Shown here piece by piece: positions 12,510 to 54,526 of a stretch of 64,000 nt of DNA (position 1 is its first letter; each line of letters begins with the position of its first letter). Under the pieces are notes generated by a model. That model saw only the letters and a program-made list of their open reading frames with translations, was not told the DNA's origin and made no database searches. Made by a program: the position numbers and the translations under genes. The stretch comes from PVC group bacterium (GTDB lineage Bacteria; Omnitrophota; Gorgyraeia; B26-G9). Where the stretch lies: contig JAAEQR010000072.1 in the NCBI GenBank assembly GCA_024231215.1, positions 129,210 to 193,209 on the forward strand, in the 5' to 3' direction.

Positions 12510-14894
12510 ATGAAAAGGAAAAGTATGCTTTATCAGAAAAAAATATGGGGAATAAGAATAGCGTGTGTAATTGTCATGTTTATTCTGGGGGGAAGTATTG
12601 CTGTCCAATCTGCGCCGGATTCTTATGTTACAAGTATTGTGGAAAAAATTGAACAGGATATGAATGCTTTGTCTAAAGAGTTGGAATTAAATAAGCAGGC
12701 TTACGAAAAATTGAAATCTGAACATGCGCAGAAACAACAGACATTGGTCGTTCGGGATAGAGAGATTGAAGTTTTGCATAAGAAAATTACGCAATCAAAG
12801 AAAGAGTTTTCAGAGAAACAACAGGCATTGGTCGTTCGGGATAGAGAGATTGAAGTTTTGCATAAGAAAATTACGCAATCAAAGAAAGAGTTTTCAGAGA
12901 AACAATATAAATTGAACCGGAAAGATGATGAAATTGCGAAGATTAAACAAGAGGCGAGTAGTTTAAAAAAAGAGGCACTGCAAAAAAACAAGATGGTGGC
13001 AAGCAAAGATGAAGAAATTACGGATTTGCAGGAACAGCTTAAAGATTTTGATGTTCTTCTGAAAAGTGCGCATGAAACTATAAATAAGTTGAGACATGAT
13101 GATTCTAATAAAGATATAGCTATAGAATCAGTTCGCGAAGAATTGCAAAAAACAGAAGATTCATTTTTGGATAAGATTCAGTCAGAGAGGGATTCTTTTG
13201 ATGAAAGGCTGGCTAAAGCTAATGAAGTAGCTGAAAAACTCAGGAATCAAAATAAAAAACAAGCACTTGAATATATACAGCAAATTCAGGAGAAAGAGGG
13301 ACAGATAAAAGTTTCTCAGAAAACTATTAATCAGAAGAATGAGATAGTAACAGGACTGAATAGTGAGCTGGATAAAGAAAGGTTGGCAAATGAAAATTTG
13401 CGTAGTCAGTATAATATCTCAGGAGACGAGAAGAAACAACTGTTGGCAACAATACATGAGTTGGAAACAGAGATAAGCAAGCAGTCTTTAAAGCTAAAAG
13501 CAAATCAGCAAAACCTGAGCAATGCAAATAAAGACCAGAGCACACTGAAACAGGATTATGATAAACTTCAAGAGGAACATGAAAAGATTCGTAATGAAAA
13601 GGAATTGTATTTAAGTAAAGTCTATTATTATGAAAAACAGCTAGAAGAAAAAGATAAGAAACTACAGGCATTACGTGACGATATACAGAGACAGGTGTCT
13701 TTATTGCATCATCAGCTGGGTGGGGTAGTTCAGGTTTCCCAGGAGACTGATTCTCAGGGGCAGCAGCTTAAGGATAAAAAAGCTGAGCTTGAACAGGTTA
13801 AATTGCAAACAAGACAGGCTGAACGTGATTTTCAGGAACAATTAGGAAAGATGAGCAAGGAAAATAAAAAATTGCTGGAACAGAGTAATAAGCTAGTTGA
13901 AGAAAAATTACAGATTCTAGCACATATGTTGCAGCTGGAAGAAGAGCAGACAATAGAAAGTGAGGCAGGGATTGCTCCGGATATAGAGCATGAGCTAGTG
14001 TATATAAAGAATGAGTTAATAAATCTAAGTGCGTCTTTAGATCAGAAAGGGCTTGAATTAACTAAACTACAAGAGGAAAATTATAAATTATTTAAAGAAA
14101 AAAATGAGCTGCGTAATATTCTTCATGAATATAATGAACAGCTGTTGGCCAAAGATAAAAAGTTTAAGCATGCACAGCAGATAATGAAACAGAAAGAAAA
14201 GTCTCAGGGTTCAAGATCTAAGGAAATTAAAAGAGATCTTGATGTCCAGATGCGGAAATTCAGAAAGGTCAATGCTGATTTTGAGAAAAAAAATGTTTTA
14301 TATGAAAAAGATATGAAGAAATATTTATCTCAGCTGAATGATTTAAGGGATAAATTAGCTATTTCTAGAGATCAATATGAGAGTGCGAAAAAGGATCGTG
14401 ATTCTTATGCTAAGCGTTTGAAGGATATTTACGCGGATGAGAGAGATTGGCAGAAAAAAGATGCACAACAATTAACGCTGTTAAGCAGTTATTCCAAAAA
14501 CATAGATGAATTGAATGCAAAGATACATACTCTTAATACGGATAATAAACGACTTAGTTTACTGCTTAAGACTATGCCGGAAAAATTGCAGACATTGGAA
14601 AATGACGTTGGTAATCTACGTAAGCAGAATGCCACATTGCATTATAATTTAGGTGTATTTCATACCCAGCGACAGGAATATACACAGTCTATAGCTGAGT
14701 TTAGTCAGGCTTTGAAGTTTAACTCTAGTGATGCTAGCACACATTATAATCTGGGTGTTATATATTCTCAATATTTAATTGATGAATCAAAGGCAGTAGT
14801 ACATTTTAAACATTACCTTGTTTTGGCTCCAAATGATAAGGATATACAAAGGGCAAAAGAGTATATTCTGCTTTGGGGGAATAGAGGTAGGTAA
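12510..14894 (+). CDS. long coiled-coil protein with signal-anchor N-terminus and C-terminal TPR repeats (MshN-like?)
   Basis: N-terminal hydrophobic segment, about 650 aa of heptad-rich K/E/Q sequence, then a C-terminal YNLGVFHT...YNLGVIY TPR pair. ATG at 12510 is preferred over the 12480 start, which overlaps the secretin. Confidence 0.6.
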   Translation: MKRKSMLYQKKIWGIRIACVIVMFILGGSIAVQSAPDSYVTSIVEKIEQDMNALSKELELNKQAYEKLKSEHAQKQQTLVVRDREIEVLHKKITQSKKEFSEKQQALVVRDREIEVLHKKITQSKKEFSEKQYKLNRKDDEIAKIKQEASSLKKEALQKNKMVASKDEEITDLQEQLKDFDVLLKSAHETINKLRHDDSNKDIAIESVREELQKTEDSFLDKIQSERDSFDERLAKANEVAEKLRNQNKKQALEYIQQIQEKEGQIKVSQKTINQKNEIVTGLNSELDKERLANENLRSQYNISGDEKKQLLATIHELETEISKQSLKLKANQQNLSNANKDQSTLKQDYDKLQEEHEKIRNEKELYLSKVYYYEKQLEEKDKKLQALRDDIQRQVSLLHHQLGGVVQVSQETDSQGQQLKDKKAELEQVKLQTRQAERDFQEQLGKMSKENKKLLEQSNKLVEEKLQILAHMLQLEEEQTIESEAGIAPDIEHELVYIKNELINLSASLDQKGLELTKLQEENYKLFKEKNELRNILHEYNEQLLAKDKKFKHAQQIMKQKEKSQGSRSKEIKRDLDVQMRKFRKVNADFEKKNVLYEKDMKKYLSQLNDLRDKLAISRDQYESAKKDRDSYAKRLKDIYADERDWQKKDAQQLTLLSSYSKNIDELNAKIHTLNTDNKRLSLLLKTMPEKLQTLENDVGNLRKQNATLHYNLGVFHTQRQEYTQSIAEFSQALKFNSSDASTHYNLGVIYSQYLIDESKAVVHFKHYLVLAPNDKDIQRAKEYILLWGNRGR
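12731..12898 (+). repeat. perfect in-frame 84-bp tandem duplication (2 units) inside the coiled-coil gene
   Basis: GAAACAACAG(A/G)CATTGGTCGTTCGGGATAGAGAGATTGAAGTTTTGCATAAGAAAATTACGCAATCAAAGAAAGAGTTTTCAGA occurs twice back to back, encoding ...LVVRDREIEVLHKKITQSKKEFSEKQQ twice. Confidence 0.85.
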
Positions 14895-21357: not shown

Positions 21358-22514
21358 CATTTTTTAGAAAATATCTAACCCACATTATTATGAGTGCGGT
21401 TATTTTTTTATCCATAATGAATCTCTCTTACGCGCAAGCAGAAATAAAACAAAAAGCCGATGAACATTATAAGAAGGGATTATTGCTGTACCATGATGGG
21501 GAATACGAAAAGGCGCAGGCAGAATTCTTGAAAGCAAAGAAGTTGATCGACAAGGTAAAAAAACAGAAGGTTGATCCTAAGAAGACAATGGCTGTTGTCA
21601 ATGAACACTATCAAAAAGGATTGACTGAACATTATAAGAAGGGATTATTGCTGTACCATGATGGGGAATACGAAAAGGCGCAGGCAGAATTCTTGAAAGC
21701 AAAGAAGTTGATCGCTGAGGTAAAAAAACAGAAGGCTGATCCTGAGAAAACAAAGGCTGTTGCCAATGAACACTATCAAAAAGGATTGACTTTATATTAC
21801 CAAGGTGAATATGAAAAAGCTAAAGAAGAATTTTTAAAGGCAAAAGTCTTAGCTGGGGCAAGTGTGCATAAAGAACAAACAGTTATTAGTAAAGAAGTAA
21901 AGCCGGAGAAAAAGAAAAAATCTTTTGAATATATTATTGGCGAAGGCGATGTCTTGGCTGTTTCGGTATGGGAAAATGACGACCTTGATGCTGAAGTTAT
22001 GGTTCGTCCAGATGGGAAAGTTTCTTTTGCTTTAGTAGGAGATGTTCTGGCTGTTGGTTTTACTATTGAGCAATTTCGTCAGGACTTGACAGCGCTTTTA
22101 AAAGAATATATACGTTATCCTCAGGTGTCTGTTTCTATTAAGGTAGTCGGAGGAGAAAAAGTAATTGTCTTAGGCCATGTAAGAAGTCCGGGTGTGTATG
22201 AAATAACCGGAAGGAAAACTATTTTAGAAGCTATTGGGAAAGCAGGAGGTTTTACGCGTGATGCAGTGCTTAAGAGTATTATCGTTGTCAAGGGAGGCCT
22301 TGAGACTCCGGTGCCTAAAAAGCTTAATCTAACCAGAGCTTTGAAAAAAGGAGAGGTTATTGAGAATATTGTCTTAGAATCAGAAGATATTATATATGTA
22401 CCCAGCCGGGTTATTGCCGATGTCAGCTACTTTATGCGTACTATTCTTTCCCCAATAACACAAAGTGTTTCTACAACACAGGATATTAACGATATCCGTG
22501 ACTGGAACAACTAA
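21354..22514 (+). CDS. Wza/KpsD-like polysaccharide export protein (Poly_export + SLBB) with N-terminal TPR-like repeats
   Basis: Signal peptide. C-terminal FEYIIGEGDVLAVSVWENDDL...VRPDGKVSFALVGDVLAVGFT..QFRQDL and VIVLGHVRSPGVYEI...ILEAIGKAGG match the Poly_export/SLBB pattern. The N-terminus carries a duplicated 55-aa unit. Confidence 0.65.
   Translation: MTFFRKYLTHIIMSAVIFLSIMNLSYAQAEIKQKADEHYKKGLLLYHDGEYEKAQAEFLKAKKLIDKVKKQKVDPKKTMAVVNEHYQKGLTEHYKKGLLLYHDGEYEKAQAEFLKAKKLIAEVKKQKADPEKTKAVANEHYQKGLTLYYQGEYEKAKEEFLKAKVLAGASVHKEQTVISKEVKPEKKKKSFEYIIGEGDVLAVSVWENDDLDAEVMVRPDGKVSFALVGDVLAVGFTIEQFRQDLTALLKEYIRYPQVSVSIKVVGGEKVIVLGHVRSPGVYEITGRKTILEAIGKAGGFTRDAVLKSIIVVKGGLETPVPKKLNLTRALKKGEVIENIVLESEDIIYVPSRVIADVSYFMRTILSPITQSVSTTQDINDIRDWNN
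21462..21791 (+). repeat. in-frame 165-bp tandem repeat (2 units) in the Wza-like gene
   Basis: GAACATTATAAGAAGGGATTATTGCTGTACCATGATGGGGAATACGAAAAGGCGCAGGCAGAATTCTTGAAAGCAAAGAAGTTGATCG is identical at 21462 and 21627. The remainder of each unit diverges by a few substitutions. Confidence 0.8.
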
Positions 22515-27494: not shown

Positions 27495-27606
27495 AAATAT
27501 TAAATATAAATTTGGGGATACGAAGTGAAACGTCCTTATTTCTCCATATAAGGCGTTAATAAGAAGACCCCTACTTCCCCCGTTCTTCGTATCCCCTTTT
27601 TTTTGT
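27495..27606 (+). repeat. structured terminator-like repeat element, copy 1
   Basis: AAATTTGGGGATACGAAG ... CCCCTACTTCCCCC ... CTTCGTATCCCC followed by TTTTTTTT. The 12-bp closing stem is perfect. Confidence 0.6.
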
Positions 27607-27610
27607 TAGA

Positions 27611-27639
27611 TTGAAAAATGGCTCAAGATATGATATAAT
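27611..27639 (+). promoter_or_regulatory. candidate promoter between the two repeat copies (leader of the 27854 gene)
   Basis: TTGAAA, 17-nt spacer, TGaTATAAT (extended -10). Confidence 0.5.
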
Positions 27640-27724
27640 TTCAATGTAATATGTATGGGCTGAAGCAAAAAAAGAGGGAGGAAGGGGTTTTTCTATTCTC
27701 TTAAAGTAAAGCAATTAAAAAAGT

Positions 27725-27826
27725 TATATAAAATTTTTAAATTTGGGATGCGAAGATTAGATTCGCCTTATCCCCTAAGGCGATTATTGGCCCCTACTTC
27801 CCCCTATCTTCGTATCCCCTTTTTTA
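27725..27826 (+). repeat. structured terminator-like repeat element, copy 2 (possible attenuator in the leader of the 27854 gene)
   Basis: AAATTTGGGATGCGAAGA ... CGCCTTATCCCCTAAGGCG ... CCCCTACTTCCCCC ... TCTTCGTATCCC followed by CTTTTTT. 12-bp stem with one G-U pair. Ends 28 nt before the RBS/TTG of the next gene. Confidence 0.6.
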
Positions 27827-27853
27827 TACCCATTTCTTTGGGGGGAGCTTAAT

Positions 27854-29494
27854 TTGACAGATTTTTATAAGAAATTACAATATGCCAGCCTAATTTTGAT
27901 CATCTTTTCATGTATTTCCCCCGTAAGTGCCCAAGAAGAGACATTTCTAAAAACCAAAATTGAAAAAATTGGTAATTCTAAGCGAAGTGAAATTAATCAG
28001 ATAAATCAGGTATTACGTAATCTGGATATTCCCAAAGAAATAGGTATGGTTAAAGAAACTTATATGCCTCGCAGTCCGAAGGCTAATCTTATTATTACAA
28101 TTCAGGATTTACATTGCCATTATCAAGCCCAAAAAAACATTGCTGCTATACTAAATTATCTTACTAATAATTTTGCGTTAAAACTTATCAGTATTGAAGG
28201 GGGCGCAGGTCCGATCGATACGGTGTTTTACCGTGAGTTGCCGGATGAAAGAATCAAAGAACAGGTAGCAGAATATTTTTTAAAAGAAGCTCGTATTAAC
28301 GGTACAGAGTATTTTGCGATAACGACAAATAAAGAAATTGCGCTTTATGGAGCTGAAGATTCTAAATATTATGATTGGAATTTAGAGGCGTTTTTAGATG
28401 CTTTGCCGAAACGGGAAAAAATACTTAAAGATGTTGCGGTTTTAGAAAATGCACTGAATATCTTGAAAGATCGTATATATAATAAGCGGTTAAAAGAATT
28501 AGATAATTATATAGTTGCTTATGAAAATAAAACGATATCATTTGAAGACTATATTTTAAATATAGAAAAACAGTATTCTAAGACTAAACTAATTAGAGAT
28601 TTTAAGCAGGTTGCTCAACTTGCCGAAAGTATTCATATAAAAAGAGAAGTTAATTTGGTAGCAGCAGAAAAACAACGAGGTGAATTAATTGATTATTTAT
28701 CAACAAAATTGCCCAGGAGAGAATTAGAAGAATTTTTACGAATCACTTTAGAGTTTAAGACCAAGACGGTAAAGGCATCGGAGTATCATAGTAAACTGAA
28801 AGAACTTTATGAGAAGACTATTGAAAAAACAAAGACTTTTGAACAGAATTGGCCGGATCTTAGTGAATATATCGTTTATTTGGATAAATATGAGACGTTG
28901 GATGATATTGAGCTTTTTAATGAAATAGATAAAGCTTTGGATGGAATAAAAAATAGTCTATATACAAGTTATACTCAAAAAAAGTTAGACCGAAATTTAA
29001 CAATAATACGCTTAGCGAGAAACCTTTTCTCCACAAAATTACTGCCACGGGATTTGCCGATAATCGATAAATATCGTAATGAGTTCAATGCGAAAAAAAT
29101 GGCTAAATTTATTAAACGTCAATCAAGAAGATTAACCCTTGATTTGCCGGTTCCAGCAGAATTAGAAGATATAGAAGATACTTTGCCGATGGTGGAAGAT
29201 TTTTATTATTATGCTTCACAGCGTAATGAAATTTTAGTAGACAATACTCTGGCATATATGAAGAAAGAAAACCAAGATGTGGGAATATTAATAACCGGTG
29301 GTTTTCATACCGATGGGATAACCGAGGATTTACGCGATAAACGTATTCCGTATGTTGTAGTAATTCCTCAAATAGATGCTCTTGAAGAGAATGATACTCG
29401 TTATATTGATGCCCTGAAGGGAAAAAAGACCCGTTTTGAAACAATGTTGGAAGGGGCAACTGATTCTGTACGAGATTTCTATTTTGGGAAGTAA
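27854..29494 (+). CDS. exported TraB/GumN/TIKI-family protein (putative)
   Basis: TTG start preceded by GGGGGAG. Signal peptide present. C-terminal VGILITGGFHTDGITEDLRDKRIPYVVV resembles the TraB/GumN GxxHLxG...V motif. Confidence 0.35.
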   Translation: MTDFYKKLQYASLILIIFSCISPVSAQEETFLKTKIEKIGNSKRSEINQINQVLRNLDIPKEIGMVKETYMPRSPKANLIITIQDLHCHYQAQKNIAAILNYLTNNFALKLISIEGGAGPIDTVFYRELPDERIKEQVAEYFLKEARINGTEYFAITTNKEIALYGAEDSKYYDWNLEAFLDALPKREKILKDVAVLENALNILKDRIYNKRLKELDNYIVAYENKTISFEDYILNIEKQYSKTKLIRDFKQVAQLAESIHIKREVNLVAAEKQRGELIDYLSTKLPRRELEEFLRITLEFKTKTVKASEYHSKLKELYEKTIEKTKTFEQNWPDLSEYIVYLDKYETLDDIELFNEIDKALDGIKNSLYTSYTQKKLDRNLTIIRLARNLFSTKLLPRDLPIIDKYRNEFNAKKMAKFIKRQSRRLTLDLPVPAELEDIEDTLPMVEDFYYYASQRNEILVDNTLAYMKKENQDVGILITGGFHTDGITEDLRDKRIPYVVVIPQIDALEENDTRYIDALKGKKTRFETMLEGATDSVRDFYFGK

Positions 29495-29704: not shown

Positions 29705-30451
29705 ATGAAATTAGTCCAAAATAGAAAATTTAGCTGGGTTCTCAGATTTAGCGTAATGCTGCTTATCCAGGCAGTGTTGACGGTAAATACTGTCTGGGCA
29801 AGTTTGGACAGTAATACCTTGGCACCTAGACTTGCGGTTAATATAGAAAGTTTTAAAGAGAAAATAGCAGTTTCTAGAATAACTTTAGATAAGTATTTAC
29901 AAAAAGAAGAGAAGCGAAGGGTACGGGCAGAAAAGCGTCAGAGAGAAAAGCTGGAGAGGAAAAAAGAAGCTGCCGAACTTAAAGGTGAGTATGAAAAATA
30001 TAAAAAATATACTATTGGTGATCTTAGAAAAAAACTTAAGCTGGGTAAGGAAATATTAGTATCGAATTTTCAGATAGTTCCGGGCATAGGTAATATTCGA
30101 GCAGCTGTTATTGGCAATGAAGTATTACTTAGAAGTCAGAATGCAACATTATGGCTTACATTTCGGTATGATGGGACAGAGATTTTTATCGGAGGTAAAA
30201 AGTTTTACAGAATTGAGAATGAAAATGTTTTGGTAGATGATGACAATTATGAAAATAGAATAAAACTGGAACAAGTTGGAAATCGACTTATTCTTGATTT
30301 AGATAAAATAACTGGGAATAAAGATATAGATAGATTTTTTGGACGAAAGAAACAAAAAGCAACAACTGAATTATCAGAAGGATTAATTAAAGATAGGATC
30401 CCGGATACACCTGAGGAGTTGTTAGGTTTATTGCTGGAACAGGCGATATAG
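29705..30451 (+). CDS. exported hypothetical protein
   Basis: Signal peptide ...VMLLIQAVLTVNTVWAS shares the MLIQ..T.NTVWA core with the next gene. No known domain. Confidence 0.4.
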   Translation: MKLVQNRKFSWVLRFSVMLLIQAVLTVNTVWASLDSNTLAPRLAVNIESFKEKIAVSRITLDKYLQKEEKRRVRAEKRQREKLERKKEAAELKGEYEKYKKYTIGDLRKKLKLGKEILVSNFQIVPGIGNIRAAVIGNEVLLRSQNATLWLTFRYDGTEIFIGGKKFYRIENENVLVDDDNYENRIKLEQVGNRLILDLDKITGNKDIDRFFGRKKQKATTELSEGLIKDRIPDTPEELLGLLLEQAI

Positions 30452-30471: not shown

Positions 30472-32652
30472 TTGATAGTTATGAATAGAAATTCCAGAAT
30501 AATAGTTAAATTAGTGATTATCATGCTTATACAGATGATGATGACGGGGAATACTGTCTGGGCTTTGTCTCCTCATATACAAGTGCAAAATGCAGAGATG
30601 AGAAATGTATTTACTGACTCTGCTATTGATCAGGCACTTGAATATGAAAGAAAAATTCATGAAGAACTCAAACAAGAATTTGACAAGTCAAGAATTTGCA
30701 ATTTACCTAATAGGCAAAGATTTTTAGAAGATTTAGTCGAGGATCTGGATCAGGGGAAAAAGATTCAGGCGGTATATCTTAATATTCAAAATTTCAAGGG
30801 GGAATTTAATGATTTTGGGGATGCTTTGGATGAACTGGCAAAGTGGTATAAACAGGATAAAATGAGTGTTATTGGACATGAATTTGGCGATTTTGGGATT
30901 CAGGCTGTTGCTGAGTATTTGACAACATCGTTAAGGCAGATGCTGGGACAGACAGGGAATAGTAATGTCACATTCAAGATTTATAATGATGCAAAAAGTT
31001 TCTGGGTTATATTTGAGGATTTACCGGACTGGTTTGATGCTAAAGAAATTTTAGTTAAACTTCTGTCAGATGATTTTGCTTTTAAAAGTAATGTGGTTAA
31101 GAGAATTAAACAACGTATGGAAGAAAGAATTCAAAACAAAGAGCAAACAGGAGAAGTTGATTTAGTAAAAGCTAAAAAATTGAGAAATAGAATGAAAGAA
31201 TTTAATGAAAATAATTTTAATATCTATGCAGGTGTTTCCCAATTATTTACTCGCCAGAAAAATCAGAGTATTATTGCTACAGCTCATACTATAGATTCAC
31301 AGGTTCTTTTAGCTGCAAAATTTGCGCAGTTTAATTTGATAAATCATGATTTGGCAGCTGAGCAGAAAAAAAGGGTTAATGATGAAGAAGGACTGAAACA
31401 GTGGTTGAGGGGGGTTGTAGCAGAGTGTCGTGAGGCAAGAAAAAGCCGGGTAGAATCGTTTAACTTGGACTTGAGAAAGAAAGTGAGATTATACAAAAAA
31501 TATGGTCAAAGAGAAGAGTTGGAATCGATTTATACCCCTATTAAACAAGTATACGATGATGCCAATACTTATAAAAAACTTATGCAGAGATATGAAGCAG
31601 CATTGGAGACTAAAGATATTAATTTGATAAAAGAAGTTAAAAAAAATGCTTTCTGGAAGATGGTTGTATATCCTTTGGGTGATTTTTTAGATGGAATTGC
31701 AGCCAGACCAATATTCTCAGGAAATCAGAGAGTTGCGGATATGATAAATCATATAGTATTAAATCAGCCAGACCGGAATTGGTCAGGTACGTTTAAAATT
31801 GGTGGGGATGAATTTGTTAAGATAGTATGGGAAGCTGGAGAAGATAGATTATATAGTTATATTTACAGTTTTGATGTGAATAATTTAGGTCGAACTAATA
31901 TTCAATGGGGGGTAAGAGTTGGCGATATGCTTTTAGATACTATGGTCTGGCTGTTTGATGAACTGGAAAACCCAGATATGGAATATATCTATAAGTTTTT
32001 CCGGAACGAGAATAAAAAAGTAAAGAATTTTCGTGATTTAAATGTAGAGATTACAGCGAATGACTATGCATATCTTAGGGTGATGATGTCGGAAAATGGC
32101 AGAGATATTGAGGACTATACTTATACTAGAGATGGTAAGTACTATTTAGAACAAATACCTCCGGTACGGGTAGAAGTAGAAGATGAAAAGACAGGTGAAA
32201 TGACAGAGTATTATTCTACGCCTTTTGCGGCAATAGGTATGGTTCATGTTGATACGAAAGTAGTGCACAGGGCAAAATTAAGTAATGCTGAACCATTTAA
32301 TATCTACAGAAATTACGGTCCGGTACGTGGTCGTGCTGATAGTGCTTCATTAAGGGTAAAGGAATTTATAAAAAAATATCAACTTTATAATGGCGGAAAT
32401 GTTTCTCCTGATGCTCTTAAGAAAGCGAAAAGAAGGATGGAAGCTGACGCTTTGGAAGAAAAAGCTATTATTACGTTTAAAGAAGAAAAAATGTCGTTAT
32501 TGCAAAGAGAATTAGCAGAGTTTATTTTTGCACATTATGTTGAGCTTTCTGACCCGAGCAATAGTTCAAGAGATCAGGATGCGAATATTATTACCCAGGA
32601 TCATTTAAACGGGATGGAAGTGTCGTCTGAGTTGTGTGAACAGGCGATTTAA
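30472..32652 (+). CDS. large exported or membrane-anchored hypothetical protein containing a literal GGDEF motif
   Basis: Signal/anchor ...IIMLIQMMMTGNTVWAL. Internal ...GNQRVADMINHIV...FKIGGDEFVKIV and an earlier NIQNFKGEFNDFGDALDEL segment weakly resemble GGDEF-domain blocks. Confidence 0.35.
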   Translation: MIVMNRNSRIIVKLVIIMLIQMMMTGNTVWALSPHIQVQNAEMRNVFTDSAIDQALEYERKIHEELKQEFDKSRICNLPNRQRFLEDLVEDLDQGKKIQAVYLNIQNFKGEFNDFGDALDELAKWYKQDKMSVIGHEFGDFGIQAVAEYLTTSLRQMLGQTGNSNVTFKIYNDAKSFWVIFEDLPDWFDAKEILVKLLSDDFAFKSNVVKRIKQRMEERIQNKEQTGEVDLVKAKKLRNRMKEFNENNFNIYAGVSQLFTRQKNQSIIATAHTIDSQVLLAAKFAQFNLINHDLAAEQKKRVNDEEGLKQWLRGVVAECREARKSRVESFNLDLRKKVRLYKKYGQREELESIYTPIKQVYDDANTYKKLMQRYEAALETKDINLIKEVKKNAFWKMVVYPLGDFLDGIAARPIFSGNQRVADMINHIVLNQPDRNWSGTFKIGGDEFVKIVWEAGEDRLYSYIYSFDVNNLGRTNIQWGVRVGDMLLDTMVWLFDELENPDMEYIYKFFRNENKKVKNFRDLNVEITANDYAYLRVMMSENGRDIEDYTYTRDGKYYLEQIPPVRVEVEDEKTGEMTEYYSTPFAAIGMVHVDTKVVHRAKLSNAEPFNIYRNYGPVRGRADSASLRVKEFIKKYQLYNGGNVSPDALKKAKRRMEADALEEKAIITFKEEKMSLLQRELAEFIFAHYVELSDPSNSSRDQDANIITQDHLNGMEVSSELCEQAI

Positions 32653-34980: not shown

Positions 34981-35436
34981 ATGGAAAATAAGGTTATTGC
35001 GAGGAATAAAACGGCATTCCATCGCTACGATATCATTGAAAAAATCGAAGCAGGTATTGCTCTTAAAGGCACGGAAGTGAAGTCGCTTCGTAAGCATAAT
35101 GTTGATTTAAAAGACAGTTATGCCAGGGTCTCTAACGGTGAAGTATTTATTCACAATATGTATATAACTCCTTATGAAGAAGCTAGTTATAACAATGAAG
35201 AACCGCGACGTATTCGTAAGCTTTTATTGCATAAAAGAGAAATAGACAAACTCCTGGGTAAAGTACACCAGAAGAGCCTGACTATAATTCCGTTAAGCTT
35301 GTATTTTAATAATAAAGGAAAAGCTAAAATTGAACTGGCTGTGGCTAAAGGCCGGAAGATATATGACCAAAGGGAAAAGATAAAGAAGAAGGAAGTAGAA
35401 ATACAGTTACGCAAAGTCCAGAGTTTTAGAAAATAA
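34981..35436 (+). CDS. smpB: SsrA-binding protein
   Basis: Collinear with SmpB (…FHRYDIIEKIEAGIALKGTEVKSLR…). 151 aa. Immediately upstream of the tmRNA. Confidence 0.9.
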   Translation: MENKVIARNKTAFHRYDIIEKIEAGIALKGTEVKSLRKHNVDLKDSYARVSNGEVFIHNMYITPYEEASYNNEEPRRIRKLLLHKREIDKLLGKVHQKSLTIIPLSLYFNNKGKAKIELAVAKGRKIYDQREKIKKKEVEIQLRKVQSFRK

Positions 35437-35522
35437 TAGGTTCTTTGAAATCACAATACCTTTTTATATTAATTACGTTTTTTGGATTTTATTTTGTTGT
35501 TAATTTGTAATTTTTGTATTGG

Positions 35523-35954
35523 GGGGGTGAAAGGTTTCGACTTAGGTTAATTTAGTAAGAGCAGCATGTCGAGGTGGTCGGGAGGCCTCGTAAAACACCT
35601 GACAAACACATAAACGCTGAAAGTAAAATTCCAGCTAGCGTAGATTCACTCATTTCAAAAATTGGTGAGGGTATTTCTCATCCGGTTTTTGGAGGAATGG
35701 CTCTAAGCCCAAGTGTTGCTTTAAGATAAAGCAACCCGCTTTTTAGTGAGTGTCTGTGGCATTAAAAAGCGTCATAAGCAGGCTCGTTAAATATGGTTAG
35801 TTTTTGACATATTTGATTAAACATTTCAAAAGCTGCCTTTGCAAGTATCTTGTTTGTCGGAGACTTGTTGAGAAAGATTAAATGACAGACTAAACATGTA
35901 GATACTCTTATTGGTTTCTTAAGGACGCGGGTTCAATTCCCGCCACCTCCACCA
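35523..35954 (+). ncRNA. ssrA: tmRNA (ssrA)
   Basis: 5' GGGGGUG pairs with 3' CACCUCC-ACCA, with a G3-U70 wobble. 3' tRNA-like end GGACGCGGGTTCAATTCCCGCCACCTCCACCA. Candidate resume codon GCU at 35616. Confidence 0.85.
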
Positions 35955-47453: not shown

Positions 47454-47529
47454 GGGCCGCTAGCTCAGTTGGCAGAGCATCGCCCTTTTAAGGCGGGTGT
47501 CGAAGGTTCGAGCCCTTCGCGGCTCACCA
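47454..47529 (+). tRNA. tRNA-Lys (anticodon TTT)
   Basis: Acceptor GGGCCGC/GCGGCTC. Anticodon stem TCGCC/GGCGG with loop CTTTTAA. T-loop TTCGAGC. Encoded CCA. Confidence 0.85.
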
Positions 47530-47683
47530 TATTAATACTTCCAAGGGTTCGAATCGAAGTTGAACGCCGAGCAAGTGCGAGGAAAAGCGAGCAGGACTGT
47601 GAGCGGCAGTGAAACGAGGCGGGCCTGCGCAGCTCTCAACAGGAAGTTGTGAGCGTAGTAGGCGAGCCCTTCGCGGCTCACCA
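47530..47683 (+). repeat. tRNA-associated GC-rich element X (copy 1, ~133 nt) plus 21-nt duplicate of the tRNA-Lys 3' end (positions 56-76)
   Basis: CGAGCCCTTCGCGGCTCACCA(TA) occurs at the end of tRNA-Lys and again at 47663-47683. The intervening sequence is about 90% identical to the element after tRNA-Val. Confidence 0.8.
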
Positions 47684-47696
47684 TACATTCTGTTGC

Positions 47697-47774
47697 GTCC
47701 CCATCGTCTAGCCAGGTCTAGGACAGTAGATTTTCGATCTACCGACAGGGGTTCAAATCCCCTTGGGGACGCCA
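47697..47774 (+). tRNA. tRNA-Glu (anticodon TTC)
   Basis: Acceptor GTCCCCA/TGGGGAC + G. Anticodon stem GTAGA/TCTAC with loop TTTTCGA. T-loop TTCAAATCC. Collinear with typical bacterial tRNA-Glu. Confidence 0.8.
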
Positions 47775-47782
47775 AAAAATTA

Positions 47783-47812
47783 AGGTCACTCGAAAGAGTG
47801 GCCTAATTTTTT
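47783..47812 (+). terminator. rho-independent terminator after the tRNA-Lys/tRNA-Glu cluster (A-tract upstream, possibly bidirectional)
   Basis: AGGTCACTC-gaaa-GAGTGGCCT followed by AATTTTTT. Confidence 0.6.
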
Positions 47813-47984
47813 GTTCGGACACAAGGGGATGGTCAAAAGGGTCTACGGGGAAAAGACTGTTTTTCCCGTTCGGCGTACTGGAGCCCAAAACGGAAAGAAA
47901 AGGAACAGCGACCGAAGGGAGCGATAGGGAAAAACCATAAGGGTTTTTCTCTATGGAGTGATCTCGCCAAAGGCGGGAGAACGA

Positions 47985-48062
47985 CTCCCCTGGGGACGTT
48001 GATTGCTTATTGCGAAATCACGACGTTCAAATCCCCTTGCGACACGACCCCCTGGGGACGTC
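47985..48062 (+). repeat. scattered partial duplicates of the tRNA-Glu 3' end
   Basis: CTCCCCTGGGGACG and GTTCAAATCCCCTT...CCCCTGGGGACGTCA match the tRNA-Glu T-arm/acceptor (GGGGTTCAAATCCCCTTGGGGACGCCA). Confidence 0.6.
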
Positions 48063-48301
48063 AAAATTACATGTGATGCTTTTAAGTTTCATCTTAACCA
48101 TTGACTTTTACGACGACTAATCATAAAATAAACTTAAATTATGTTAAACCCGAACTATGCATTAGGCTGCGGCGAATAGCATTAATCTTTGCCATACCAC
48201 AGAGGGGATGCCTGTATTTTTTGTAAGTATTTTATCTCAAAAATCTTAGCACTCTTCATCCGCCTTCTAATACATAATCCGGGTTAATAAAGAGGTAAGT
48301 T

Positions 48302-54048: not shown

Positions 54049-54097
54049 GGGTTGACAAACAAAAAGAAATATTGTAAACTTTAAACTCTAACTACAA

Positions 54098-54174
54098 GGG
54101 CGCGTGGCACAGTTGGTTAGAGCACCTCCCTTACAAGGAGGGGGTCGTAGGTTCGAGTCCTACCGCGCCCACCA
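54098..54174 (+). tRNA. tRNA-Val (anticodon TAC)
   Basis: Acceptor GGGCGCG/CGCGCCC. Anticodon stem CCTCC/GGAGG with loop CTTACAA. T-loop TTCGAGT. Encoded CCA. Confidence 0.8.
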
Positions 54175-54326
54175 TGAGTTTACCTGACGGACTCGAATCG
54201 AGTTGAGCGCCGAGCAGGTGCGAGGAAAAGCGAGCAGGACTGTGAGCGAAAGCGAAACGAGGCGGGCCTGCGCAGCGAACAACAGGAAGTTGTGAGTGTA
54301 GTAGGCGAGTCCTACCGCGCCCACCA
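54175..54326 (+). repeat. tRNA-associated GC-rich element X (copy 2) plus 21-nt duplicate of the tRNA-Val 3' end (positions 56-76)
   Basis: CGAGTCCTACCGCGCCCACCA(T) occurs at the end of tRNA-Val and again at 54306-54326. The core ...TCGAATCGAGTTGAGCGCCGAGCAGGTGCGAGGAAAAGCGAGCAGGACTGTGAGCG... is shared with copy 1. Confidence 0.8.
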
Positions 54327-54376
54327 TTTTCCCAGTAAGGGGAAATAGTTCGATACAAATATAAGACTAAATTTTT

Positions 54377-54454
54377 GGAGCCGTAGTTCAGCTGGTTTAG
54401 AACGTCGGACTGTCGATCCGAAGGTCGCGGGTTCGAACCCCGTCGGCTCCGCCA
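54377..54454 (+). tRNA. tRNA-Asp (anticodon GTC)
   Basis: Acceptor GGAGCCG/CGGCTCC. Anticodon stem TCGGA/TCCGA with loop CTGTCGA. T-loop TTCGAAC. Encoded CCA. Confidence 0.8.
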
Positions 54455-54462
54455 TAAATATA

Positions 54463-54491
54463 CCTTCATCCGAAAGGATGAGGGTTTTTTC
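54463..54491 (+). terminator. rho-independent terminator after tRNA-Asp
   Basis: CCTTCATCC-gaaa-GGATGAGGG followed by TTTTTT. Confidence 0.65.
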
Positions 54492-54497
54492 TTATTA

Positions 54498-54526
54498 TTG
54501 ACAGTAGCTATTGTCCATAGTATTAT
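54498..54526 (+). promoter_or_regulatory. candidate promoter of the aldolase gene (with ~140-nt leader)
   Basis: TTGACA, 17-nt spacer, TATTAT. Confidence 0.5.

Follow-up and report, generated by a model that had tools for sequence, protein, structure and literature searches.

Two tRNA genes in a 64,000-nucleotide (nt) stretch of Omnitrophota DNA (contig JAAEQR010000072.1; this whole stretch is called the window below) are each followed by nearly the same short element and then by a second copy of their own 3' end, which raises the question of what the element is and how each copy comes to end in a piece of its particular neighbor. The unit behind tRNA-Val(tac), on which the analysis centers, is a member of an undescribed family of noncoding units of ~135 to 150 nt that sit inside tRNA operons and consist of a 13- to 15-nt A/U-rich leader, a scaffold of ~110 nt, and a copy of nt 56 to 76 of the upstream tRNA gene. 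The overall description of the family developed below is held at about even odds.

Anatomy of the two units in the window

An earlier note on this DNA had judged the elements behind tRNA-Lys(ttt) and tRNA-Val to be about 90% identical by eye, and alignment confirmed this, with a 127-nt direct repeat of 88% identity (47558-47684 versus 54201-54327) and G/A-rich scaffolds of ~110 nt that are 90 to 91% identical. Of the limits given for the second copy, 54175 to 54305, the 3' limit stands, whereas the 5' limit lies at ~54176 if the leader is counted or at 54189 if the unit begins with its closing helix. The segment CGAGTCCTACCGCGCCCACCA(T) occurs within tRNA-Val and again behind its scaffold, as CGAGCCCTTCGCGGCTCACCA(TA) does within tRNA-Lys and behind the sister scaffold (Table 1). 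The duplicate had been described as nt 56 to 76 of the host tRNA; both loci indeed carry exact copies of these positions, but the copied segment usually runs 1 to 4 nt beyond CCA.

The flanks of the two loci in the window are unrelated, with frr upstream of the Lys locus and glmS upstream of the Val locus, and tRNA-Glu downstream of the one versus tRNA-Asp of the other; segmental duplication therefore does not apply. At the Val locus a promoter-like site, tRNA-Val, the unit, tRNA-Asp, and a terminator-like hairpin follow one another in this order, so that the unit is expected to lie within the operon transcript.

A family of units in Candidatus Omnitrophota

The core 20-mer of the scaffold, scanned as an exact pattern against 185,579 species with one genome per species, retrieved 8 further loci in 6 metagenome-assembled genomes (MAGs), all of Candidatus Omnitrophota. 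All but one of these loci stand directly behind a tRNA, each with that tRNA's own 3' end. Further copies were reached through a metagenome scan, through a covariance model, and through syntenic loci found by homologues of Frr and of a Zn-ribbon protein; the metagenome scan, made with a 19-mer, added 2 true copies, the other 10 loci being chance 19-mer matches. The genome and metagenome scans each used one exact pattern, and ~0.6 Mb of Omnitrophota sequence was examined. The family so assembled comprises 15 intact copies, 1 truncated by the end of its contig, and 3 degenerate ones, with covariance-model scores of 86 to 152 bits, and all are found in Candidatus Omnitrophota MAGs or in unassigned metagenome contigs.

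At least nine tRNA species precede intact copies (Lys-ttt, Val-tac, Val-cac, Met-cat, Glu-ttc, Ala-ggc, Tyr-gta, Gly-tcc, and Leu-gag), and one copy has a His-like tail, with no tRNA in the 195 nt of contig upstream. Every intact scaffold ends in ...GUAGUAGG (GUAGUGAC behind tRNA-Glu) and is followed by the local tRNA from nt 56 onward. The diversity of the tRNAs, together with the unrelated flanks, supports the earlier proposal of independent units at different tRNAs; the other proposal, that the duplicated segment is specific to its locus, holds throughout: each unit has its own local tRNA's 3' segment, and this segment is thus target derived or target matched.

No description of the unit was found in Rfam or in the literature searched, in keeping with the earlier note's failure to place it in a described family. 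A search of the whole window with Rfam 15 at the gathering score passed only tRNAs and the transfer-messenger RNA (tmRNA), and a permissive Rfam search of 54050-54500 brought up nothing of relevance within the element. Viral contigs scanned with exact patterns yielded nothing or chance matches only, and blastn against phage and plasmid collections returned no match. The sole covariance-model match on a viral contig (L033, 26 bits) was seeded by a 17-mer and is not credible. The stop-free antisense frame of the element had no matches in a protein database, which argues against a conserved peptide.

The junction between unit and tRNA copy is uniform on the tRNA side, where the boundary always falls at nt 55/56 in the T-loop, as the earlier note had suspected. 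Three independent units share 22 nt between tRNA and copy, one shares 23, and two share 25; two secondarily shortened copies share 18 and 20 nt. Behind tRNA-Glu, similarity resumes past a later insert and runs through the terminator, over at least ~55 nt. Lengths of 18 to 25 nt in most copies, beside this much longer stretch at tRNA-Glu, make a fixed-length duplication of the transposase type appear unlikely. The left copy ends at CCA +0 to +4, usually +1 to +4, and after the terminator at tRNA-Glu; the G that is the partner of C56 lies exactly 20 nt past the end of the shared segment in the window Lys unit, in the window Val unit and its counterpart at L007, and in the Tyr unit of L008. At L011 the tRNA-Gly gene has no encoded CCA, and the copy has one.

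Comparative fold of the scaffold

Folding of single sequences gave weak z-scores of about -1.5, and a structure emerged only from comparative analysis. The alignment contains six helices, namely, P1, P2, Px, and hairpins A, B, and C. P1, a pairing by RNAalifold of the element's first nucleotides with the beginning of the tRNA copy, closes the unit; P2 encloses hairpins A and B, and Px encloses hairpin C. This gives two three-way junctions on the tRNA strand, one of P1, P2, and Px and one of P2 with hairpins A and B, and the 3' strands of Px and P1 are continuous. A tandem G.A/A.G step occurs in P2 and in each of the three hairpins and is replaced in some copies by Watson-Crick pairs.

In 12 hand-aligned copies, 95.9% of cells are paired, with double-sided changes in 17 of 35 pairs; model alignment of 15 copies gives 95.0% of cells paired and compensatory changes in 21 of 35 pairs. 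When partners were slid by 1 to 3 columns, pairing dropped to 29 to 41%, and none of 500 shuffles matched the observed values. The G.U pairs place the fold on the tRNA (plus) strand. The alignment thus indicates that the element is above all a structured, selected RNA on this strand, a possibility that the earlier reading had not considered. That reading had taken the terminal GTAGTAGG to rebuild the 5' strand of a T-stem in front of the copied T-loop; instead, its GUAGG pairs with the upstream CCUGC to form Px (GUUAC/GUGAC in the tRNA-Glu copies), and it is the 5' end of the element that pairs with the T-stem 3' strand of the copy.

Hairpin B stands out among the helices. In the gamma subfamily (L004 2922-3057 and L047 9637-9771) its stem is entirely different, and the AGGA loop is kept. 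GGA occurs in loop B of all 15 copies and in loop C of 11 of them, and the linker between hairpins A and B reads AGGA. The invariance of hairpin B and the survival of its GGA loop through a full replacement of the stem suggest contact with a protein.

A hammerhead or other self-cleaving ribozyme at the scaffold/tRNA junction was considered and rejected, as both junction nucleotides are in covarying Watson-Crick pairs and no core motif is present.

A closing helix and tail matched to the local tRNA

According to the earlier note the insert is conserved and only the flanking duplicate differs between loci. The first 7 to 10 nt of the element prove to vary as well, being complementary to nt 56 to 64 of the local tRNA and changing with it. 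The 5' strand of P1 forms on average 8.0 contiguous pairs with the copy of its own tRNA versus 5.1 with the copies of other tRNA types (permutation P < 5e-5); examples are given in Table 1. A reading of this strand as a sense copy of the T-stem and T-loop was discarded, because GGACUCG of the Val unit fits the complement of nt 56 to 62 and not nt 49 to 57, and across copies the strand fits the complement of nt 56 to 62/65 and not a sense copy of the T-stem 5' strand.

The tRNA-specific module therefore has two parts, a 3' half that is the tRNA copy and a 5' half that is the 7- to 10-nt strand closing P1. Positions ~65 to 76 of the copy (acceptor 3' strand, discriminator, and CCA) have no partner within the unit and form a free tail. 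Two candidate partners failed: pairing of the tail with the scaffold linker GGUGGG shows no covariation with the discriminator base, and leader and tail have no complementarity that would give an acceptor-like helix.

Selection, spread, and loss

The Val unit of the window and its orthologue at L007 belong to different species, whose Frr proteins are 84% identical. Between them the scaffold agrees at 113 of 117 positions (97%) and the tRNA at 74 of 77, compared with 10 of 14 (71%) for the leader and 50% for the upstream sequence; the downstream spacer differs by many indels. All four scaffold differences fall at a loop position or exchange G-C and G.U pairs. The tail has no substitution in either lineage, and CCA is lost in L007. 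Because the scaffold is as conserved as the tRNA while its flanks are 50 to 71% identical, the RNA is evidently kept by selection, and by this comparison purifying selection on the fold is as strong as on the tRNA itself.

Scaffolds cluster by the lineage of their genome and not by tRNA: identity is 90% between the window Lys and Val units and between the Tyr and Gly units of L008, and 66% between the Gly units of L008 and L011. One tRNA-Val at L047 is followed by a tandem pair of units that belong to different subfamilies and are 55% identical; in both, the leader begins immediately past a CCA. The comparison of related MAGs that the earlier note had proposed revealed a patchy presence: L021, in a MAG shared with L007 and L008, keeps a 5' remnant only, L026 and L027 hold truncated copies, and the orthologous sites at L023, L025, L028, L046, L048, and L049 are empty. 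Lineage clustering, tandem units, and remnant and empty sites together indicate that units were gained at new tRNAs, stacked, and frequently lost, which at the level of sequence demonstrates duplicative spread to new tRNAs.

A possible RNA-mediated route of spread

We tentatively propose that this spread is RNA mediated. The unit RNA would be freed by tRNA end processing of the operon transcript, as the stretch from one "CCA|" processing site to the next, and new units would arise by copy-choice between unit RNAs and tRNA transcripts. A copying enzyme would pass from the 3' part of a tRNA or pre-tRNA into a unit, switching at the homology of the unit's own CGA(G/A)(U/C)CC strand to any T-loop, and such a switch would fix the junction at nt 55/56 without a sequence-specific nuclease. 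The enzyme would then continue to the 5' end of the unit RNA and jump to a processed tRNA 3' end or to a terminated transcript, which would explain the CCA plus 0 to 4 nt, the terminator-length duplication at tRNA-Glu, the constant leader length, and the tandem arrays. The hybrid copy would enter the chromosome by homologous recombination at the tRNA gene, and P1 would be rematched afterwards by compensatory change under selection. By this copy-choice route the tRNA end would be target derived, and the free tail would be the recognition and homing device of the unit. The earlier note had the element recognizing the conserved GGTTCGAG T-loop of different tRNAs; there is no sign of a protein that does so, and homology to any T-loop explains the junction equally well.

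On this route the unit would be a bacterial, protein-less, RNA-mediated mobile element, a "tRNA-tailed RNA" resembling short interspersed nuclear elements (SINEs), in which template switching at the T-loop captures 21 nt and the tail homes to the matching tRNA gene. Put in equivalent words, it would be a naturally reprogrammable RNA with a targeting module copied from the target. In either wording this is a possibility that we regard as having the odds against it. Eukaryotic tRNA-derived SINEs, like the units, are short and noncoding, contain tRNA sequence, and multiply without coding capacity, but they use the 5' promoter-bearing part of the tRNA and the machinery of long interspersed nuclear elements (LINEs). 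The piece copied by the unit (nt 56 to 76 with CCA) is of the class of 3' tRNA-derived fragments, which are cleavage products and not genes. We know of no bacterial counterpart of SINEs.

Each of the nearest known systems fails at least one defining test. The reverse transcriptase of the Neurospora mitochondrial retroplasmids starts at a 3' CCA and switches templates end to end (bioRxiv 10.1101/792986), and the tRNA-containing hybrids integrate at the matching gene by homologous recombination (10.1101/792986). These retroplasmids (Mauriceville/Varkud) resemble the units in having a tRNA-like 3' end with CCA, junctions directly at CCA, a head-to-tail arrangement, captured host tRNA sequence, and integration at matching tRNA genes without an integrase, the last being inferred for the units; the leader that begins 0 to 4 nt after CCA and the tandem pair at L047 are retroplasmid-like features. 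Retroplasmids, however, are autonomous plasmids of fungal mitochondria that encode their own reverse transcriptase, whereas the units have no open reading frame (ORF), capture only nt 56 to 76, contain a 110-nt selected scaffold, and are chromosomal, in bacterial tRNA operons. The integrative elements that target tRNA genes and their deleted derivatives, the cis-mobilizable elements (CIMEs), likewise flank their insert with direct repeats of the tRNA 3' part and accrete in tandem at one tRNA, but they are kilobases long, carry or need a tyrosine or serine recombinase, and bring their own attachment (att) copy, whereas the unit is an insert of ~125 nt of structured RNA with a repeat that is the local tRNA's and differs at every tRNA. 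Group I and group II introns and retron noncoding RNAs were rejected for want of an Rfam match and of an adjacent ORF and because 110 nt is too small.

Several points weigh against the RNA-mediated account and, in part, against the family description itself. At L004 2922-3057 an old gamma copy still has P1 but no tail, a sign that the tail may be dispensable, and a conservation that matches that of the tRNA argues for a cellular function. The sample is small, with its 15 intact copies, and is biased by the exact 19- and 20-mers that found most of them. Neither the 64-kb window, part of a 708-kb contig, nor the ~3.5 kb around the 8 genome loci contains a reverse transcriptase or another enzyme linked to the units: scans of the window ORFs (Pfam, NCBIfam, and PADLOC) and of the neighborhoods of these loci gave only housekeeping genes and tRNAs, and the recombinase or nuclease gene that the earlier note had suggested looking for is likewise missing from the window and from beside the 8 other loci. 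The RNA route rests on junction anatomy and on a single tRNA gene without CCA, and events at the DNA level, either template switching during replication or Campbell-type recombination of a small circle, would give nearly the same footprint.

Alternative explanations

Alternatively, an unlinked RNA-guided protein could use the unit as its guide RNA, as TnpB uses an omega-RNA or Cas12k a CRISPR RNA, with tRNA nt 56 to 76 as a 3' guide of ~21 nt. The GGTT of the T-loop would then be the protospacer- or transposon-adjacent motif (PAM/TAM), the DNA of the unit itself, with ...AGG ahead of the guide, would be spared, and the role would be homing or control at tRNA genes. Omega-RNAs and the homing guides of CRISPR-associated transposons (CASTs) share with the units a structured scaffold followed by a locus-specific 3' segment of ~20 nt, so that the layout and a guide length of 16 to 21 nt fit in form, and GGTT adjoins the match as it does for these guides; it precedes the target, whereas GG or AC precedes the self copy. 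The protein contact suggested by hairpin B would also be accounted for. Type V-K transposons target tRNA genes with truncated repeat-spacer units (PMC11406308), and in V-K systems the guide segment matches a tRNA gene (PMC11406308). In those systems, however, the guide lies unpaired inside a transposon with the effector gene adjacent, whereas the 7 to 10 PAM-proximal nt of the units are locked in P1 by a covarying strand, a design foreign to known guides, and the neighbors are tRNAs and housekeeping genes, with no tnpB, cas12, Tn7-like, or insertion sequence gene adjacent or in the window, and no Rfam match. At L011, moreover, the copy has a CCA that the gene lacks and therefore matches the mature tRNA and not the DNA target. 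The guide-RNA explanation is thus improbable.

A similarly small chance is given to an ordinary host regulatory or spacer RNA, be it a sponge of the CsrA/Rsm type or a processing element of tRNA operons, in which the tRNA piece is only the 3' strand of the closing helix, arisen as a by-product of local duplication and without a part in targeting. The units share with the Csr/Rsm sponge small RNAs a length of ~110 to 130 nt, a purine-rich composition, and several hairpins with GGA loops, here loops B and C, with a further GGA in the A/B linker. Predicted cotranscription with tRNAs, the strong purifying selection on the scaffold, and the L004 copy that dispenses with its tail would all suit such an RNA. 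The number of GGA sites is variable, however, no Rfam match to CsrB or Rsm RNAs was obtained, and known Rsm RNAs have no tRNA-specific module. A host RNA would also leave unexplained why every new copy has the 3' end of its own neighbor tRNA and why the tail is unchanged next to flanks that diverge by ~30%.

Slightly less probable still is a small nonautonomous DNA element moved by an unlinked transposase or a casposase- or integrase-like enzyme that recognizes the T-loop and makes staggered cuts at nt 55/56 and a little beyond the tRNA end, with the tRNA repeat as a target-site duplication of 21 to 23 bp. Direct repeats of the tRNA 3' end do flank leader plus scaffold, the left boundary is constant, six copies share 22, 23, or 25 nt as listed above, and presence is patchy with empty sites in related MAGs. 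Such an element should nevertheless have constant terminal inverted repeats, and the only inverted repeat here, P1, varies with the tRNA and has its right arm in the tRNA copy. The tRNA-Glu duplication, of at least ~55 nt through the terminator, is longer than such a target site, a covarying fold with G.U pairs and an orthologue conserved like a tRNA are not expected of a passive transposon remnant, and neither the 64-kb window nor the vicinity of the 8 other loci contains a transposase or integrase.

Two last explanations, scars of tRNA-targeting integrative elements (attL/attR around a deleted, cis-mobilizable island) and paralogous segmental duplications, could draw on the frequency with which these tRNA spacers hold partial tRNA duplicates and further small inserts, but the data exclude both. 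The same 110-nt structured core stands behind at least nine tRNAs with unrelated flanks, the repeat is always locus specific where an island would bring an att copy of its own, the window and the surroundings of the 8 genome loci contain no integrase gene, and neither the covariation nor the orthologue conservation resembles a scar.

Implications

If the description of the units as tRNA-tailed, structured RNAs holds, they form a new class of bacterial noncoding RNA with a specificity module, closing helix plus free tail, that is copied from the neighboring tRNA and rematched at each move, a natural example of an RNA reprogramming itself from its target. It would also provide what is maybe the first SINE-like, RNA-mediated, noncoding mobile unit in bacteria. 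Covariance model R1 and the anatomy of the family offer a handle for finding an enzyme partner (a reverse transcriptase, an RNA-guided protein, or an RNA-binding regulator) by co-occurrence. Conservation of the scaffold at the level of the tRNA implies a cellular role to be found, in a phylum without a cultured model, and the units show the tRNA operon spacers of Omnitrophota to be actively used by small structured inserts of more than one kind.

Features of the window and other inserts nearby

Table 1. Coordinates of the Val and Lys loci in the window, P1 pairings, and related sites at other loci (L numbers)
Feature	Position	Strand	Remarks
Sigma-70-like promoter, TTGACA-17-TAAACT	54052..54080	+	Consensus scan, consensus match only; tRNA-Val/unit/tRNA-Asp operon
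tRNA-Val(tac)	54098..54174	+	ARAGORN and Rfam
Left repeat copy in tRNA-Val	54154-54175	+	nt 56-76 plus one base
Val-unit leader, 13 nt, A/T-rich	54176..54188	+	Between tRNA end (CCA+1) and P1
Val-unit P1 5' strand, GGACUCG	54189..54195	+	Complement of tRNA-Val nt 56-62, pairs with CGAGUCC; covaries with tRNA identity
Val-unit conserved scaffold	54196..54305	+	Covariance model R1, 148 bits
Val-unit J1/2	54196-54201	+	Part of scaffold
Val-unit P2	54202-54208 with 54252-54258	+	Scaffold helix
Val-unit hairpin A	54210-54225	+	Scaffold
Val-unit hairpin B	54230-54247	+	Loop GGAC; AGGAC including closing A
Val-unit Px	54267-54271 with 54301-54305	+	Scaffold helix
Val-unit hairpin C	54275-54297	+	Loop AGGAA
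Copy of tRNA-Val nt 56-76 plus T	54306..54327	+	54306-54312 is the P1 3' strand
Unpaired stretch of Val copy	54313-54326	+	End of T-stem 3' strand, acceptor 3' strand, discriminator, CCA
tRNA-Asp(gtc)	54377..54454	+	ARAGORN; next gene of tRNA-Val operon
Intrinsic-terminator-like hairpin plus T-run	54462..54485	+	Operon end
tRNA-Lys(ttt)	47454..47529	+	ARAGORN and Rfam
Left repeat copy in tRNA-Lys	47509-47531	+	
Sister (Lys) unit	47532..47662	+	R1, 143 bits
Lys-unit leader	47532-47542	+	
Lys-unit P1 5' strand, AAGGGUUCG	47543-47551	+	Pairs with CGAGCCCUU
Lys-unit scaffold	47552-47662	+	
Copy of tRNA-Lys nt 56-76 plus TA	47663..47685	+	tRNA-Glu (47697-47774) begins 11 nt later
P1 of Glu unit, GGGGAUUUG			Pairs with CAAAUCCCC
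P1 of Gly unit, GGGGAAUCG			Pairs with CGAUUCCCU
Second insert family	L002 2268-2350, 2668-2734		
Second insert family	L001 2721-2772, 2940-3052		
Second insert family	L026 7757-7830		
Second insert family	L027 9482-9565		
Second insert family	L028 9508-9700		
Second insert family	L005 and L006		After tRNA copy
TAAG-rich repeats	L001 2550-2640		
TAAG-rich repeats	L023 10640-10730		
TAAG-rich repeats	L026 7545-7600		
TAAG-rich repeats	L028 9890-9960		

Small inserts of a second family start immediately downstream of a CCA, which belongs either to a tRNA or to the tRNA copy behind a scaffold, and contain the palindrome CATGGCA(A/G)GCCATG; several of them also have a hairpin, CCCGAGCAAAGUCGAGGG, that resembles hairpin A of the main scaffold. 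Genes or pseudogenes for 23S_rRNA_IVP/Avd-like four-helix-bundle proteins (PF05635) occur in tRNA operon spacers of related MAGs (L023 16893-17252 and L008 ~2400-2700), flanked by TAAG-rich inverted repeats in the manner of intervening-sequence cassettes. At L027 9637-9720 lies a partial 5' fragment of tRNA-Val(cac) (GGGCGATTAGCTCAGTT ... GGTTAGAG) with a D-loop interrupted by two hairpins, one of them formed by CCCACCA and its complement TGGTGGG.

In the window, a G/A-rich stretch of ~250 nt past the tRNA-Glu terminator (47810-48065) closes with two imperfect partial copies of the 3' end of tRNA-Glu, GTTCAAATCCCCTTG and CCCCTGGGGACGTCA. It was rejected as a further copy of the unit, having no R1 match with filters off and no Rfam match, and could be a different or decayed element bearing a tRNA end. 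Downstream of tRNA-Leu(gag), positions 27505-27830 hold two tandem hairpin units of ~110 nt (GGGGATACGAAG...CTTCGTATCCCCTTTTTT, 223 nt apart); the ORFs that follow (27854-29494, 29705-30451, and 30472-32652) have no match in Pfam, NCBIfam, or PADLOC. The smpB gene is followed directly by a standard one-piece tmRNA (34981-35954; Rfam, 182.8 bits), which is ordinary and has no unit behind it. Near-perfect in-frame tandem repeats at 21461-21790 (2 x 165 nt) and 12730-12897 (2 x 84 nt), in large ORFs of a secretin/tetratricopeptide repeat (TPR) cluster, are probably ordinary repeat-protein expansions.

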